A DNA stretch of 25,822 bases from a virus (lineage: Duplodnaviria; Heunggongvirae; Uroviricota; Caudoviricetes): IMG/VR virus record IMGVR_UViG_2585427774_000009, positions 1-25,822 of that record; one strand, given 5' to 3'. A program made the translations under genes and the position numbers. The notes beneath the pieces were generated by a model. It worked only from the letters and a program-made list of their open reading frames with translations, had not been told where the DNA came from and did no database searches. The number at the start of each line of letters is the position of its first letter. Positions within the stretch are counted from its first letter, which is position 1. Shown piece by piece: positions 3,009 to 12,854 of the stretch.

Positions 3009-3270
3009 GTTTTAAAGTGAGTGCAGATCAATGCGGCGACGCCTATCAATAGCGTCCACAGTTATAGAGGAACGGCGAAAGAATAAACAGTAGGGCTGTA
3101 TTGATGAAGAACCCAGGGATCTTTAACGCTCATACTGATCATTTGTCAGGATGTGATTATCAATAAAGCCAGGATAGGATTAATCTCACACACTTAGAGA
3201 TGACCCGACAATAATCGAAACGACAAGAAAAATGTGGTCTCGGTTACAGGATTATCACCTTGGTAAAGGG

Positions 3271-3582
3271 ATGACTACCATGACAAAATATGAAGGAATA
3301 TCGGCCAGAGTTAAACAAGTTACAGTTAATGATTTTGGTAGATATTTCAATAGCATTGAAAATTACAAGAATGGCATTTTTTGCTATATATGCGGTGGTA
3401 ATGACTGGGATTTGCACAGAAGTCCTGATGATAAAGAAAGGCCCGTGATTATCACCTTTCCCATCCCCGATAAAGATGGAATGGGAGTATGGGCCTTTTA
3501 TGTGATGTGCAAAAATTGCGGCGGCATGCATTTTATCAATGCTAATAAAGTTGCTAATTGGTTGGATAACAAAGAAAAATGA
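3271..3582 (+). CDS. Hypothetical small protein with two C-x2-C motifs (putative zinc ribbon)
   Basis: ORF track gives 3232..3582; the more likely start is the ATG at 3271 or 3280 (AAAGGGA Shine-Dalgarno at 3264-3271). Contains CYICGG and CKNCGG about 38 residues apart. Visibly AT-rich coding sequence. Stop overlaps the next start (ATGA at 3579-3582). Confidence 0.55.
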   Translation: MTTMTKYEGISARVKQVTVNDFGRYFNSIENYKNGIFCYICGGNDWDLHRSPDDKERPVIITFPIPDKDGMGVWAFYVMCKNCGGMHFINANKVANWLDNKEK

Positions 3583-4073
3583 TTAACCCTTGCTATGATG
3601 AGAGCATCTTCAATGTTGAAGTAAGGGGTAAATCTAAGCTAAATAGCCACGCCGGTGGTATGATTGAAAATCATAACGGCGACACTATGTTAGTTGCTGA
3701 AACAATCACTATTGATTTTGAGGAGGAAATCGTGACTTCGCAAGAAAATCCGCATCTGAAAATTCCTCTTACTTTCAAATCGGCTATGTGGATGGGTATT
3801 GGTTTCGTTGCTGTTGCGCTAGGTGGAGCTTGGGCCATGTACACCCACTTAGACAACAAACTTGAAACCTATAGATCTGGTACTGAAGCCCGAATTGAGG
3901 CCGCAAGAGCAAGCCTTGATGGCAAGATAGATTCTCTCGGATCAGAAACACGCGCTCATTTTGAAGCGGCTAGAGTGGAATCTAAAGCAGATAATGCCAC
4001 CATAACAACTCAACTACAGACCATCTCAAATAGCCTATCCGAACTAAACGGAAAAGTTTCAAAAGACAAATAA
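3579..4073 (+). CDS. Hypothetical membrane-anchored protein with one predicted TM helix and a helical C-terminal domain
   Basis: 164-aa ORF; central hydrophobic segment MWMGIGFVAVALGGAWAMY; C-terminal Ala/Arg/Glu-rich repeated helical segments (TEARIEAARASLDGKIDSLGSETRAHFEAARVESKAD); translationally coupled to the upstream ORF; followed by a terminator hairpin. Confidence 0.6.
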   Translation: MINPCYDESIFNVEVRGKSKLNSHAGGMIENHNGDTMLVAETITIDFEEEIVTSQENPHLKIPLTFKSAMWMGIGFVAVALGGAWAMYTHLDNKLETYRSGTEARIEAARASLDGKIDSLGSETRAHFEAARVESKADNATITTQLQTISNSLSELNGKVSKDK

Positions 4074-4104
4074 CCCGGCCACCGTGCCGGGTTATTGTTC
4101 ATTT
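4073..4104 (+). terminator. Rho-independent terminator after the two-gene cassette
   Basis: Stem ACCCGGC (4073-4079) / GCCGGGT (4086-4092) with a 6-nt loop, followed by TATTGTTCATTT; read directly. Confidence 0.55.
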
Positions 4105-4223: not shown

Positions 4224-6431
4224 TTATTTTGATTCGAGATCCTCAACACGCGCTACCAAATTTTCATACTGCTCTTTCATTCGCTCATAGTTACGGCGCT
4301 GCAGCGCAGCTTCCAGAGCCAGGGCCTCCTCATAACGAATGCCATAGCGGGATCCGGCTGGGGTTTCCAGAACCTGGCTGTAAGTTGGCTCTGCAGGTTC
4401 GGTATATTCCTCAATTACCTCAGTCGGCACCTGCTCGGTATACTCCTCCTCGACATCTTCAAGCTCTGCCTCATAAACAAAAAGCTGTTTGCCTGCCTCG
4501 TCAAGACGCGGAGAACCATCCTCGTTAAAGACAAATACCTGGATAAGCTTAGGTGTCTGATACTCTTCCTGAACTACCCTCTTGATGCGTTCTCCATCTT
4601 CCGCTTCTTCATCCACAAGAATTTCGCGCGTGGCTGTCATCATCACAGGTCGTTTTACTGTACGGGTTTTTGTCACTTCCATCATGCGGCTGACAGTGCG
4701 GGTTTTTGTTACTCGCTCCCCCTCATTGGTCCGCACTGAAATATATTGGTCTTCCCATTCGTCGTAACAGAGGAGCCCGAGACCGAAGCCATCAATGCCA
4801 TGCGATGCAAACACCTCCTCCACGCGCTGCGCAATAAGGCCGAAGTGCCAGCGCGCACCGTCTTCGCCTTTTTGCGCAACCGCATCATCAAACTTAAACC
4901 GCGTGCGCCAGCTGACTTCCTCCCAGGCATCGAGGACCACATCAGGGATCGCTTCCTTAATTGGCTTGTGATTGTCATCGGAGGTGTTAATCGCACCAGT
5001 ACCAAAATAGGCAGTACGTCCTCGATATGAGGCTGAGCCATAATCGAACTGGTTATCGGCGCTCGGGCGCTGGGTGCAGTTATAGGTGACAATCCCGGCT
5101 TTTATCTCATAGTTACCTTGCCCATCTGTTGCACTACCACCGCTAACCACTACGCGAGCGTCAAAAGCAGAGCCAGCCCCACTGGACCGGTATATTGTTT
5201 GCACCGTGCTTGCAATAGTTGGAGACCCTACTGACGTAAACGCCCCTGAGTCTTCTAATTGCAAAGATTTGGTGCTGAGCTTAACCAGGTTGTGGAAAAT
5301 GATGTGGTTCACTTCAACCAACGAACCGAGGGAAAGGACGCGGTCTATTTTTGGGCAGTCGACGGAAAGTACACGGCTGTCTTCACCAAATACTGCCCCG
5401 CCATTCTGCGGGCCAAAGGCAATACCGGTTCGCCAGGTGCAGGCGCTACCCATGTTACCGACGCTAATTGCAGCATCAATTACGTCGCCGCGTTTTGCCT
5501 TGGTGCCGCCGATTTGCAGGCCGGTTCTGATGTTTGAGCTGGCACCCTCCGGAATGCCGACGTTGAATTCAGCCCCCGTGACATTGAGCGTATACATAGC
5601 CCCTGGGGTAAGCGTTCCGTAGAAATTACCACCAAAATAAGCCCCCTTAGCGCCAGCAAGCGATACTCCACCGTCTCCAGTTGAGGAGGTCGCAAAGCCG
5701 GTGACGCCTACATAGTTTCTGTCAGTATTTGTTGCATCAGTCTGACCAAGCTGCTCAAGGATGAATTCAGCAGCGTGGCGGCCGCCTTTACATCCCGCCC
5801 CCCCGAATTTGTGATTCAAGAGGAATCCGTCAACCTTTGTTCCGGGAACCATGTCATCAACAGCATTGAAACGGTCATCGTCAATCCTGATATAATTGAA
5901 CTTGGCCGTGTTGACAGTGAGCCCGCTCCCGGTAATCGGCTCCGCAAGATGAACCCCGATCCCTCGGGTAATATCATCTCCGAATTTCTCTCCTGGCCGC
6001 CCCTGCAGAATTGAAAACTTATCCAGTCCTCGGCTCATTACCCCAGGACCTACTAATGCAGCGCCGCCCAGCGCAGCTAATTCAGCCCTTAACTGGTCTG
6101 GAGCATATTTCAGAACATCAGCAAAATAGAATTGTTGGGTGCCGTATGAATCGCGAATCTCCATGCTGTAATTTTGCACGGTGACGAATTTAACAATCTG
6201 ACCGTTATAAACGGGGAATCCGCCAGCATTTATTCGCAATGGCTGAGGTACTGGAACATGGGTCCCATCTTCATTCTCAATATAAACCTGAATTTGGTTA
6301 GCAGGATTCGTAGGATCTGTATCCACTAGCCCAATAAAGATTTCTCCATTGGCAACAGCCTTAAATGCACGAGCCATAGTAAATGGCTGGCTAGGCATGG
6401 CGATAAGAACATTCGCGGTAATATCTGACAT
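4224..6431 (-). CDS. Tailspike protein: P22-like head-binding N-domain, glycine-rich receptor-binding/depolymerase domain, C-terminal S74-type intramolecular chaperone domain
   Basis: 735-aa ORF; N-terminal about 110 aa (MSDITANV...FKAVANG...[19 protein letters not shown]...LKY.PDQ) matches the P22 gp9 head-binding domain from memory; central Gly/Thr-rich region typical of beta-helix spikes; C-terminal part has a Ser-(x4)-Lys motif (TSDDNHK) and WHFGLIAQ resembling endosialidase-type autoproteolytic chaperone domains; last gene of the late operon as in P22. Confidence 0.85.
4657..4712 (-). repeat. Imperfect 36-bp tandem duplication inside the tailspike C-terminal domain
   Basis: ACTGTACGGGTTTTTGTCAC (4657-4676) and ACAGTGCGGGTTTTTGTTAC (4693-4712) on the plus strand, encoding the duplicated peptide VTKTRTV in [22 protein letters not shown]. 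Confidence 0.5.
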
Positions 6432-6487
6432 TTAATTTGCTCCAGATACAAGGAATCGCCGCAGCATGGCTACGGTGAATTTTGGGC

Positions 6488-6512
6488 ATAAAAAAACCCA
6501 GCCGAAGCTGGG
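6488..6512 (-). terminator. Rho-independent terminator between ant and the tailspike gene
   Basis: Minus-strand RNA would read CCCAGC-UUCG-GCUGGG followed by UUUUUUU (plus-strand A-run 6490-6496, stem 6497-6502/6507-6512); read directly. Confidence 0.6.
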
Positions 6513-6531
6513 TCGTTGCGTTGGTTATCTG

Positions 6532-7502: not shown

Positions 7503-7664
7503 TTACGCGCCAATGCGCCCTTCCTTCTTAAAGCTTTCCATTACTCTCTGATAAATCTCAGAGTTAACAGACCGACCATTCTCTTCCGCCACCTTGCGGA
7601 CCAAATCCAATACTTCTTTAGGCCACCGCAAATTGAACTGCGGCATCTTGCTCATTCCTTTCAT
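7503..7664 (-). CDS. arc: Arc repressor (ribbon-helix-helix)
   Basis: Internal start of the 74-aa track ORF gives [53 protein letters not shown] (53 aa), which matches P22 Arc as I recall it (one conservative difference possible). Confidence 0.9.
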
Positions 7665-7678
7665 ATTCACCTCACAAT

Positions 7679-7699
7679 ATAGGTCCACCGTGGACCTAT
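7679..7699. promoter_or_regulatory. Mnt operator (Omnt), perfect 21-bp palindrome ATAGGTCCACCGTGGACCTAT
   Basis: Read directly; the core AGGTCCAC(C/G)GTGGACCT equals the published P22 mnt operator; lies between arc (start 7664) and mnt (start 7755), where Pant is expected. Confidence 0.75.
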
Positions 7700-7706
7700 T
7701 GAGAAT

Positions 7707-7727
7707 ATAGTAGAGTGCTTCTATCAT
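7707..7727. promoter_or_regulatory. Arc operator (Oarc)
   Basis: Plus strand reads ATAGTAGAGTGCTTCTATCAT, the reverse complement of the P22 arc operator ATGATAGAAGCACTCTACTAT as I recall it; located in the arc-mnt divergent promoter region. Confidence 0.7.
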
Positions 7728-7754
7728 GTCAATATACTAACTTGGAGTGATGGC

Positions 7755-8006
7755 ATGGCTAGAGATGATCCGCACTTTAACTTCCGTATGCCTATGGAAG
7801 TAAGGGAGAAATTAAAATTCAGGGCGGAGGCGAATGGGAGATCAATGAACTCCGAGTTGTTACAAATCGTCCAAGATGCTCTATCAAAACCATCGCCTGT
7901 GACTGGATATCGCGACGATGCAGAACGACTCGCTGATGAGCAGTCAGAGCTTGTTAAGAAGATGGTGTTTGATACGCTGAAGGATTTGTACAAAAAACCC
8001 ACCTGA
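7755..8006 (+). CDS. mnt: Mnt repressor (ribbon-helix-helix, maintenance of lysogeny)
   Basis: 83-aa ORF MARDDPHFNFRMPMEVREKLKFRAEANGRSMNSELLQIVQDALSKPSPVTGYRDDAERLADEQSELVKKMVFDTLKDLYKKPT, near-identical to P22 Mnt from memory; divergent from arc-ant. Confidence 0.9.
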   Translation: MARDDPHFNFRMPMEVREKLKFRAEANGRSMNSELLQIVQDALSKPSPVTGYRDDAERLADEQSELVKKMVFDTLKDLYKKPT

Positions 8007-8019: not shown

Positions 8020-9027
8020 TTACTTGTCTGAATCATCCAGTTCGTCTGTTTTCACATCCTCAAACCTTGGATGCAGGCGATTCATTTTTGCAATAAAATC
8101 TGAATAGTCGTTAGATAGCTTCATAATCGTAACGGTTGATGACAGATGCTCTCTTAATTTTTGATATCCAATATTTGGCGTCAGCCCCTGAAACAACTTT
8201 GTACCTTTTGAGGCCTTTACGTTCTGCTTTTTAAGCTCCTCAAGGATGTTTGGTGCCAATCTCTTGTAGACGATATCATTTGTCAAAACGCCAAAATACT
8301 GAGGCCGGAAGCGGGGATTTTCCGGCGGGTATTCTAAGCCCCTTAACCTGAAAAGCTCTTCATAATAATCAGCAGGAAATGTTGTAATATAAGGTTGAAT
8401 TTCCTTTGCGACAAAGGCCTCGAGTATTTTGGCGAGTGCATCTTTTTCTCTATCTCGCTGGTAACCCGTCGCTTCATCAACAAGCGCTATTATTCCGACT
8501 TTAGCTAATGAGCGCACCAGAATTTCAGCTTTCTTGGCTGTCTCTAACTGGTTTGGCCTGGTGATAGCGCCTGCCTCTCTTGCCTTTAAATAAACATCGC
8601 AGACAAGAGGTATTATGGATGCGTCATAACCTTCCTGGACGGAGCCAGTAATCGTCTTGTATTTGACCTTATTGATCACATCCATAACATCTTGATTTAT
8701 ATATTTTTTAAGGTTTGCAGCATCCATAAAAGCGGGCATATTGATCACCCCCTCTTCTTGAGGTGCTCTACCCCCTCTTTGTGGTCGGCCAAATGCTTTA
8801 AAAACAGAAGCTTGTGATATGATACGCCGTCCATTTTCGAGAACCGCGACATCTAATTCCGCATCACCGATCTTTAACTTTCCCTCATTCGCAGATACGG
8901 GCAATAAAGCTTTTTCTTTTTTTGCGGCAACAGCCTTTCTTGAGGATTCTTTTCTTTGCTCTGCTGTCATTTTTGCCGCGCGTGCCTTACCGCCTTTGGC
9001 CTTCCCACTAACATCATCATTTTTCAT
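8020..9027 (-). CDS. Hypothetical protein with basic Lys/Ala-rich N-terminus and a C-terminal region resembling the P63C-type phage domain
   Basis: ORF track gives 8020..9087 (355 aa); the likely start is the ATG at 9027 or 9033 (MKNDDVSGKAKGGKARAAK...). The IALVDEATGYQRDREKDALAKILEAF segment resembles my recollection of P63C-domain proteins; unverified. Occupies the position where P22 carries sieA-region genes, between gp16 and mnt. Confidence 0.6.
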   Translation of the reverse strand: MKNDDVSGKAKGGKARAAKMTAEQRKESSRKAVAAKKEKALLPVSANEGKLKIGDAELDVAVLENGRRIISQASVFKAFGRPQRGGRAPQEEGVINMPAFMDAANLKKYINQDVMDVINKVKYKTITGSVQEGYDASIIPLVCDVYLKAREAGAITRPNQLETAKKAEILVRSLAKVGIIALVDEATGYQRDREKDALAKILEAFVAKEIQPYITTFPADYYEELFRLRGLEYPPENPRFRPQYFGVLTNDIVYKRLAPNILEELKKQNVKASKGTKLFQGLTPNIGYQKLREHLSSTVTIMKLSNDYSDFIAKMNRLHPRFEDVKTDELDDSDK

Positions 9028-9069
9028 GAGCATATCTCGTGTTGTGATTGATAAGTCAATCATACACAT

Positions 9070-9104
9070 GCACGTTGTAACGTGCAATATTTAAATATGC
9101 ACGT
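9070..9104. promoter_or_regulatory. Cluster of palindromic operator-like sites in a divergent promoter region
   Basis: GCACGTT-GT-AACGTGC inverted repeat (9070-9085), perfect 12-bp palindrome ATATTTAAATAT (9087-9098) and a third GCACGT copy (9099-9104); lies between the minus-strand 355-aa gene and the plus-strand 129-aa gene. Confidence 0.35.
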
Positions 9105-9186: not shown

Positions 9187-9576
9187 GTGAAGCAATTTCT
9201 TACTGCTATGTTCTTATTCATATCTTTTGGGGCTACAGCAGAGTGCTGGGTCGTTGGAGATATGCGCGGAATAAGCTATTCAGAACGAAATAATTTCCAT
9301 CCGGAAGAAGATGGTTTTAGTGGAACATTCATCATTAAGACAAACGGTGAAGATGCCAGCATCACATATTCTGGGACAGATGCGGGCGGCATGGCTTACA
9401 AAGCATTGTCTAAAAACTCCATCATAGGAATCGGCGCGAATGGCGAAACTCAACGCGTTATCGACTCATGGGTAATACATCCAACTGGAACAGTTTTAAT
9501 GTCAAAAACCATTTCCGGTTATGGAAATATGGATTCAACCAAAGCTTTTGTTGGAAAAGTAAAAAGAAAATGTTAG
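9187..9576 (+). CDS. Hypothetical secreted (signal-peptide) small protein, opposite-strand moron
   Basis: GTG start preceded by a strong AAGGAGG Shine-Dalgarno with 6-nt spacing; N-terminus MKQFLTAMFLFISFGATA-E is a typical Sec signal peptide with an A-x-A cleavage site; transcribed against the late operon. Confidence 0.6.
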   Translation: MKQFLTAMFLFISFGATAECWVVGDMRGISYSERNNFHPEEDGFSGTFIIKTNGEDASITYSGTDAGGMAYKALSKNSIIGIGANGETQRVIDSWVIHPTGTVLMSKTISGYGNMDSTKAFVGKVKRKC

Positions 9577-11442: not shown

Positions 11443-12854
11443 TCCACCGTAAATTGAATGCCTGATTTTGATGTATATGATCCAACCTGATTCCGTGGTT
11501 CTCCTGAAGGTGTCGAATCTTGTGCTGGCGCTGCGTCAGTATTCATTGACATATACCGCTTAACGGCACTCCCCAATGATTCACCTTTTTTAACATCCAA
11601 CCCCAATATCTGACCGCCATTACGCGATTGTCCAGGATTGCCATTCGCGCTCATCCACTCAGCTTTAAACTCATTAAACTGCGCGTTTCGTCGCTCAAGG
11701 TTTGCCATTGCATCAAGCCATCTTGCGACCGTCTCAGGGTTATCCATGTCAGTTGGCGCACCCTGCCGAACGATCTCAACGTCTTTATCCGTTGCTGGGC
11801 CGGGAGGTAGGAATTTAAGGACCTGACTGTTAACAAGGGCATTTTGGCGAATGCGCAAATCACGCAATGTTGTATCGCTTCCGGTAAGTTTTGCGAACAT
11901 GTTCTGTGCGTTACCGAACAAACCTGTCGTTGGTTTTTCTGCTCTGAACTGTTGAGCAAGCGCACTCATAGAATTGGCTGAGTTTGATGATGCTGTAGCA
12001 TTGTTTACAGCCGTCTCGATGCCTTTTTCCATGTTTACTGACAGCTTAGGTGCTTCGCTAATCAACTGCTGAGCCTTTTCCTGCGCTTGCTGCATCTTAA
12101 ACCCGAACTCTTGCTGATCCAGAGCCAAGCGTTGTGCTGCGATATTGTGCCCAGTCATTGCTGACTGATAGGAAAGGTTTTGCCCTCTCGCCTGAAGTGC
12201 CTCGCCAGCCTGATTGCTGCGGATTGTCTCTGCCAGCCTGCCTCGGTCAATTTCACGACCAGCCATCTTATCCTGAACAGCAAACGCCTTTTCTGGTCCA
12301 AGCGCACCGAGAGACATAGTAGTCAGCATGTGTGATAGCTGCTCTGGATTCTGAATACCTGTCTGAATCATCCAGTCAGCATTCGCACCCACACGATTTA
12401 ACCTGTCCTTGTTGTCAGTAATGAATTTACTGTAGGCTTCCGGTCCCTGAGAAAGAGCGACGTTAGCCCTCATGGCTAAATCGCCCATATCATTGCGTTG
12501 CTGATCATTAAGACCGGAAAACGCCTGTTGTGCCTGTGCAACAAACGCTGGATTTTCCTGGGCAAACTTAAATAGTCCCGATGGATCACCAGAAGCCCAT
12601 GCATCAGCGTGAACCTTATTGAACGCACTAATAGCTTTCTGTTGCTGTTCCTGATTGTAAATATCAGCAACTCCAGCCAGACCACGTAACGCGGTCAGAC
12701 CAACGTTATTTGCACCTGAGCGAGCCAGTTCATTGTTTTCGCGGATCAGACCAAGCGTTGCGTTAATGTCGCTTGCCTTTGGCGCATTCTCATTTTGCGT
12801 ACCGATGCCAGCCAGAAAACCACCAGAATTAATACCCTGCTGCCACGTAGCCAT
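11439..12854 (-). CDS. Ejection protein, P22 gp20-like
   Basis: 471-aa ORF matching P22 gp20 in size and position; 4-bp overlap with the gp16-like gene. Confidence 0.8.

Follow-up and report, generated by a model that had tools for sequence, protein, structure and literature searches.

The tailspike gene and its product

The DNA analysed here, a window of 25,822 nucleotides (nt) from the IMG/VR virus record IMGVR_UViG_2585427774_000009, covers the left end of a P22-like prophage and carries on its minus strand, at 4224..6431, the tailspike gene that is the subject of this study. The gene is an intact open reading frame (ORF) of 735 codons followed by its stop (4224-4226), and a ribosome-binding site (GGAG, minus strand, 6440..6443) can be read directly from the sequence 8 nt 5' of the ATG at 6431. 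Its product of 735 amino acids (aa) combines a P22-type head-binding domain, a Gly-rich middle domain with a stalk, and a C-terminal S74-type chaperone. This layout of three modules, which a first-pass annotation had drawn from the letters of the window, is borne out by profile searches, sequence comparison and model-based fold comparison. Taken together, we regard it as quite probable that the prophage, integrated at tRNA-Arg(CCT) beside yfdC, encodes a trimeric P22-like tailspike with a solenoid receptor part, a stalk and a self-releasing S74 chaperone.

NCBI and UniRef already list an identical protein of Escherichia coli under the names 'phage tailspike protein' and 'tail fiber domain-containing protein', and roughly 40 genomes carry it. 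The Citrobacter freundii complex has relatives of at least 90% identity. Of 5,426 complete genomes of E. coli, that of EC102 alone has the full gene (99.8% identity). From our point of view, the protein is an ordinary P22-type mosaic that is correctly named in the databases and represents an uncharacterised member of a known architecture, since the tailspike of phage CUS-3 has the same plan and since the combination of PF09008 and PF13884 is common, both being present in more than 40 of the best 120 database hits. It is nevertheless less ordinary than usual in two respects, namely that (i) its putative solenoid belongs to a widespread unannotated family; and (ii) the tentacle of its chaperone is about three times as long as that of any solved chaperone.

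Residues 1-113 (6093..6431, minus strand) correspond to the P22-type head-binding, or tail-docking, domain. They match Head_binding (PF09008) over the entire profile (positions 1-113/113; E=9.1e-56; 187.4 bits against a cut-off of 24), and in a search of PDB sequences residues 1-118 align to Sf6 gp14 (E=6e-50) and P22 gp9 (E=5e-41), in agreement with the resemblance to gp9 that had been noticed for roughly the first 110 residues. Beyond residue ~118 the same search gave no similarity to P22 gp9 or Sf6 gp14. The domain is ~72-74% identical to that of many P22-like phages of E. coli and Shigella, and the position of the gene, beside the ejection proteins and the ant/arc/mnt region, fits the end of a P22-like virion module. 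The spikes of P22 and Sf6 share with the present one the N-terminal 113-118 residues and the gene position after ant-arc-mnt, but differ from it in having no S74 chaperone and longer beta-helix coils. In the assembled virion, residues 1-113 would dock the spike onto the tail.

The C-terminal chaperone and its predicted release

The C-terminal residues 484-735 (4227..4982, minus strand) are assigned to the S74 intramolecular chaperones because of the conservation of a Ser-Lys dyad, the residue spacings shared with T5 pb1, and a confident AlphaFold2 (AF2) model that matches 3GW6, the chaperone of the K1F endosialidase. The Peptidase_S74 profile (PF13884) covers residues 484-545 with 38.8 bits against a cut-off of 22 (E=1.2e-9), which upholds the earlier assignment, and is also matched by 65 of 67 relatives. 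PDB sequence chains that include the chaperone (3gud, 3gw6, 4uw8, 9vvr, 6eu4 and 7y5s) align at residues ~393-586. The AF2 model of residues 440-735 has a mean predicted local distance difference test score (pLDDT) of 88, and Foldseek relates it to 3GW6 (E=4.4e-10), 3GUD (2.5e-6) and 4UW8 (4.8e-6) and, more weakly, to the ICA domain of MyRF (probability 0.9). The features of the S74 fold, i.e. a mixed alpha/beta body, an upward beta-hairpin tentacle and a terminal helix, are all seen in this predicted monomer. The terminal helix, residues 700-735 (4227..4334, minus strand; residues 261-295 of the model, pLDDT ~96), aligns to that of 3gw6 and is predicted to form a trimeric coiled coil that nucleates assembly.

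By direct count, the part that follows the predicted cut comprises 252 aa, close to the ~250 residues first estimated, although its computed mass is 29.3 kDa and not the 27 kDa that had been proposed. The claim that it is unusually long also holds, as the chaperones of T5 pb1 (PMC4690869) and K1F have 133 and ~155 aa, respectively, and the chaperone chain of GA-1 that starts at the Ser has 129 aa. The same is true for its acidic, Glu-rich character: Glu accounts for 16.3% of residues 484-735 (pI 4.55) and for 18.5% of residues 566-700.

The predicted autoproteolytic site lies between INT and SDD at codons T483-S484 (4980..4985, minus strand), with the codon of the putative general base of the dyad, K489 (Ser+5), at 4965..4967 on the same strand. 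S484 and K489 are found where the first reading had placed them, and the WHFGLIAQ motif that it had noticed is at 528. Neither dyad residue varies in any of 55 relatives, and the same holds for K521, G522, A526, R527, H529, G531, C555, D557 and R699, while T483 is kept in 54. The spacing of the dyad is that of A911(S)/K916 in the 3gw6 alignment of K1F and of S1264/K1269 in T5. Furthermore, T483, R470 and D459 lie at -1, -14 and -25 from S484, identical to the spacings of the catalytic set of T5 pb1, and the offset of the HMMER alignment to 4uw8 (query 448 = pb1 1228) agrees with them. The three residues are part of the stalk that precedes the cleavage site (residues 393-483; 4983..5255, minus strand) and that is related to the stalk at the C-terminal end of endosialidases. 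In the PDB sequence search 3gw6 aligns from residue 393 on, and the stalk is also included when the two are aligned by profile. It is the best-predicted portion of the AF2 model of residues 114-483 (pLDDT 75-94), albeit as a monomer, which cannot show an intertwined trimer. The match of residues 377-483 to the stalk-like C-terminal part of PF12219 (End_tail_spike) is weak and below the cut-off (E=0.0045). The region may be a stalk of the triple-beta-helix type, as is usual ahead of S74 chaperones.

For T5 pb1 it has been described that the bond between Thr1263 and Ser1264 is cut, that Lys1269 activates Ser1264, and that Arg1250 of the neighbouring chain, located between Asp1239 and Thr1263, senses correct folding (PMC4690869). 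In our reading, the C-terminal helices of the present protein would trimerise first and the three beta-hairpin tentacles would clasp the upstream chains during folding. Once the endosialidase-like stalk has correctly formed, S484, activated by K489 and assisted by T483, D459 and R470 of the neighbouring chain, would cut the T483-S484 bond, freeing the 29.3 kDa fragment and leaving a mature spike of 50.7 kDa.

A Gly-rich middle domain outside the annotated families

Between the head-binding domain and the stalk lies a Gly-rich domain (residues 121-392; 5256..6071, minus strand). Glycine makes up 15.9% of residues 114-483. No Pfam, PHROG or PDB sequence match was obtained for residues ~121-392, and NCBIfam, run on the whole protein, as well as PHROGs, run on the core of the domain, each returned 0 families. 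When the core was scanned singly with Pfam in 133 relatives, no family covered it, and a profile of the family alignment had no PDB match in the core (profile positions ~147-430). The pectate-lyase-like beta-helix families PF12708 and PF13229 matched neither the query nor the core of the 133 relatives, and the endosialidase catalytic domains PF12217, PF12218 and PF12195 are absent from the Pfam scan of the query at E<=1. The view that the centre of the protein belongs to no recognised family has thus stood, as has, at the level of sequence, the view that it is unrelated to the P22 endorhamnosidase. Two further ideas for the Gly-rich motifs, a Ca-binding beta-roll of the RTX-like type and an esterase of the SGNH type, were rejected upon reading the sequence, as the motifs that define them are lacking.

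The family itself is large. When 1.84 billion representatives of clusters at 50% identity were searched with a profile of the middle core, 1,899 clusters matched at E<=1e-3, of which 1,124 reached E<=1e-10. The only cultured phages with the domain are EcoPhCCP1 (46%), four Pseudomonas syringae phages (34%) and, weakly, Stappia phage SI01. The 'tail spike protein' of the Kagunavirus EcoPhCCP1 and the proteins of Drael01 and Draal01-03 share the middle domain with the query but have other virion adaptors and short tentacles; the paper on EcoPhCCP1 is silent on the activity of the phage spike (PMC12919940). The cassette of middle and C-terminal domains stands behind at least five kinds of N-terminus (Head_binding, Tail_spike_N, Phage_T7_tail, Phage_tail_fib and Calx-beta). 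Conservation is highest at residues 190-320, with the motifs GTKVDG, GGRHA, DRNYVG, GDGG, YFGGN and EFN and with D319; the nearly invariant positions include G216-G217-R218, Y240, D253, G255, G263, F266, E288 and D319.

Mean-field coupling analysis of 188 homologues (effective number 146) suggests a fold for this region. Among the 100 strongest couplings at a separation of at least 14, 44 fall at a separation of 16-24, compared to 6.7 expected under a null model of uniform separations, and together they line up as a parallel ladder that spans residues ~177 to ~377 (e.g. 199-219-237, 223-243, 244-268, 280-298, 324-343 and 335-356). We infer from this pattern that residues ~177-377 form a parallel beta-solenoid of ~10 coils of ~20 aa each, which is shorter than usual for pectate-lyase-like beta-helices. 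The coils would not be sequence repeats, with a periodicity visible in the coupling analysis only, since profile autocorrelation in the core gave no peak.

Several points weigh against the solenoid. The coupling test relies on a naive null model. For residues 114-483, the AF2 monomer model, built on an alignment of 67 sequences, has a mean pLDDT of 70 and shows no strands at residues ~173-378. Foldseek found nothing significant for this model in the PDB or BFVD: the best PDB match (E=0.38) is to endosialidase stalks, and the BFVD matches are at stalk level or uncharacterised. With such a pLDDT and ~200 residues without secondary structure, we consider the model unfit for fold assignment. The modelling of the central domain that had been suggested along with the first-pass annotation hence yielded a confident stalk (residues 393-483), but left the fold of residues ~173-378 unassigned.

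The expanded tentacle

The excess length of the chaperone is located in its tentacle. Between the invariant motifs CYD (residues 555-557) and G-S-R-Y-G-I-R (693-699) the query has a spacer of 135 aa, whereas the corresponding distance is ~41 aa in K1F (CYD to GxxWGVR) and 20 aa in 9vvr. In the best 120 database relatives, the spacers fall into classes of 22-23, 37-57, 88-111 and 131-135 aa. The expansion sits exactly between the last element of the core and the terminal helix, which is the tentacle position of T5 and K1F, and in the AF2 model residues 554-698 (4338..4772, minus strand) consist nearly entirely of long strands. In T5 pb1, the tentacle (residues 1332-1371, just before the last helix) has 40 aa and a length of 50 Angstrom and embraces the preceding domain, the K1F tentacle is ~20 Angstrom longer, and that of phi29 is much shorter (PMC4690869).

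Alignment of the spacer over the length classes reveals nested deletions that are centred on the tip and matched in both arms. The class of 111 aa is short of one 12-aa unit per arm, having one copy of VTKTRTV in the ascending arm and one of EEYTE in the descending arm, where the query has two of each. In the query, the ascending segment 573-595 carries a net charge of +7 and the descending segment 657-679, with which it pairs over 23 residues, one of -10, and the Glu-rich acidic region of the first-pass annotation is the descending arm of this ribbon. The nested paired insertions and deletions (indels), together with the opposite charges of the arms, lead us to regard the structure as a two-stranded ribbon that has grown by matched duplications. 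The most economical reading is that a tentacle, expanded to ~145 aa by duplication of matched basic and acidic segments, serves as a longer clamp. A tblastn search with residues 560-701 gave no match in 50,697 phage records, and in the literature searched we found no description of extra-long S74 tentacles. In E. coli MB20, the same long chaperone (92% nt identity) also terminates a fibre of 761 aa that belongs to a prophage of the siphovirus type.

Discussion

The closest counterpart of the present protein is the endosialidase tailspike of CUS-3, a P22-like phage of E. coli K1, in which a P22 head-binding domain is followed by a foreign receptor-degrading part, a stalk and an S74 domain. With tblastn it aligns to query residues 1-572 in two pieces (42%), and module exchange of the CUS-3 type is documented (PMC5380687). 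CUS-3 carries the endosialidase domains PF12217/12218/12195 (compare relative P0106), where the query has the unannotated, putatively solenoid Gly-rich domain instead, and the tentacle of the query is much longer. For the C-terminal part, the K1F structure 3GW6 is a close relative (profile E=7e-47) and shares with the query the dyad, the motif ARxHFGxIAQ, the CYD, the tentacle hairpin, the terminal helix and the preceding stalk, differing in the lengths of spacer and released domain. T5 pb1 shares the Thr-Ser site, at which cleavage in the query is a prediction, and the full series Asp(-25), Arg(-14), Thr(-1), Ser and Lys(+5), but has an upstream receptor-binding domain that is unrelated (PMC4690869).

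As regards the function of residues ~121-392, we propose a receptor-recognising Gly-rich solenoid whose most likely role is to bind a polysaccharide of the host surface, and which may set an O- or K-antigen specificity of its own, as the first-pass annotation had suggested. It might also cleave the polysaccharide. Whether it does the latter is a question on which we would give roughly even odds, with an enzyme only slightly ahead of a non-enzymatic, fibre-like adhesin that binds O-antigen or capsule without depolymerising it. No enzymatic motif was identified in the middle domain and no hydrolase or lyase profile matches it, the mature part is small (370 aa beyond the head-binding domain), and the invariant polar positions (K199-H219-D237) line up along the solenoid into ladders of the kind that is typical of structural features of solenoids, so that their role may be structural. 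On the other hand, the characterised tailspikes of P22-like podoviruses, namely those of P22, Sf6, HK620 and CUS-3, are enzymes (PMC5380687), and the carboxylates D253, E288 and D319, together with R218 and Y240, are nearly invariant across 127 distant members of the family. The relatives themselves point in both directions. In proteins of the P0095 type the core is joined straight onto the opening ~48 positions of a pectate-lyase-like profile and looks like the prolongation of a catalytic helix, whereas P0139 and P0140 hold, elsewhere in the same protein, a complete canonical beta-helix of the pectate-lyase type, from which it follows that the core need not be the catalytic part. In P0139 (1557 aa) the canonical pectate-lyase/Beta_helix region is at 168-414 and the Gly-rich core at 951-1198, and in P0140 (1282 aa) the core likewise lies several hundred residues downstream. 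This suggests either that the two are two-headed receptor-binding proteins or that the core is non-catalytic.

The reading of the C-terminal domain as a self-releasing chaperone with a longer clamp also has points against it. Processing of this protein has so far been deduced from its sequence, D459 and R470 are kept in only 33 of the 55 relatives, and P0009, P0010, P0016 and P0020 combine the same middle domain with spacers of 22-37 aa, so that a long tentacle is not required to fold this middle domain. The first of these points would leave room for an S74-like domain that stays in the mature spike without being processed, but we deem this very improbable, given that every residue of the proposed cleavage mechanism is present, that the Pfam S74 score is far over the cut-off and that S484 and K489 are invariant. 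With respect to the tentacle, one could speculate that the 135-aa insertion is, beyond a longer folding clamp, an independent functional module that is active after release or offers a binding surface. Its dispensability in the short-spacer relatives would fit such a role, as would the observation that many relatives differ in middle domain and stalk and yet keep its length tightly within 131-135 aa, among them P0037, with a different middle domain and a spacer of 131 aa. In addition, the model hairpin weakly resembles the stems of beta-pore-forming toxins; these Foldseek matches, however, are of low probability and not significant (E>=0.01). The insertion is furthermore located exactly at the tentacle position, its nested paired indels are those of a simple hairpin, and no separate profile or phage-record match exists, and we therefore hold an independent module to be unlikely and favour the longer clamp.

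Two bolder readings can be imagined. In one, the solenoid of ~20-aa coils at residues ~177-377 would be the founder of a large, so far unannotated group of receptor-binding or depolymerase domains of phages, with an active site of its own (R218, Y240, D253, E288 and D319). In the other, basic and acidic units of 12 aa would pair along the S74 tentacle into a modular 'zipper' of adjustable length, ~3 times as long as any solved example, that spans the whole receptor-binding domain or acts after release. We find these readings rather doubtful. The O-antigen or capsule types that are open to attack by a phage depend on its tailspike modules. For host-range prediction and depolymerase discovery, a receptor-binding family of ~1,900 clusters that lacks annotation leaves a considerable gap. 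The series of tentacles with matched indels, in turn, represents a natural experiment on the reach that an intramolecular chaperone needs to fold a trimeric spike.

The surrounding prophage

At the left end of the window, yfdC (1-933) and a tRNA-Arg gene with the anticodon CCT (1009-1083) mark the insertion site of the prophage and are followed by a tyrosine integrase gene (1209-2435). On the other side of the tailspike gene lie the genes of a P22 antirepressor, Arc, Mnt, a P63C protein and P22-type ejection proteins (Inj_translocase). The annotation of E. coli EC102 shows an identical arrangement, and the locus is that of the EC102 IntS prophage. A consensus scan yielded two terminator-like elements: a hairpin with a T-run in the interval between the antirepressor and tailspike genes (6495..6514, minus strand; a pattern match only), and, also supported by the sequence, a bidirectional hairpin with an 11 bp stem (4069..4096) that is common to the tailspike gene and a convergent ORF (3579-4073).

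This ORF (plus strand, 164 aa) has a hydrophobic segment and a coiled-coil-like tail and is without a Pfam or PHROG match. It overlaps an ORF at 3232-3582 (plus strand, 116 aa; CxxC...CxxC; phrog_4293, function unknown), both lying between the integrase and tailspike genes and convergent with the latter. In P22, gtrABC occupies this position. The two ORFs are possible lysogenic-conversion or exclusion genes. Closer to the integrase, a minus-strand ORF of 105 aa (2412-2729) that overlaps the 3' end of the integrase gene matches phrog_3469, 'UmuD-like protein' (E=2.6e-44); in MB20, a small ORF close by carries the annotation 'DNA polymerase V'. The interval from mnt to the genes of the ejection proteins contains the gene of the P63C-domain protein (8020-9087, minus strand; phrog_2384, function unknown) and that of a 129-aa protein (9187-9576, plus strand; phrog_2651, function unknown). 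In P22, the corresponding region carries sieA.

In the comparison with EC102 and MB20, homology is lost directly behind RRNYE (window 4224-4290), and the alignments place a recombination breakpoint there, within the C-terminal helix of the chaperone. EC102 and MB20 continue with an additional ORF of 97-99 aa (11640-11939 in locus L001 and 7652-7945 in locus L002, respectively; phrog_1443, function unknown, hydrophobic), the ATG of which overlaps the stop of the fibre gene, whereas the window has no such ORF and a different C-terminus of 20 aa. In the otherwise near-identical EC102 prophage (L001), the gene of the 'packaged DNA stabilization protein' is frameshifted or partial and lies beside an IS3 transposase gene, and because of this interruption the EC102 copy is probably defective. 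The ORFs of the late genes in the window appear intact.

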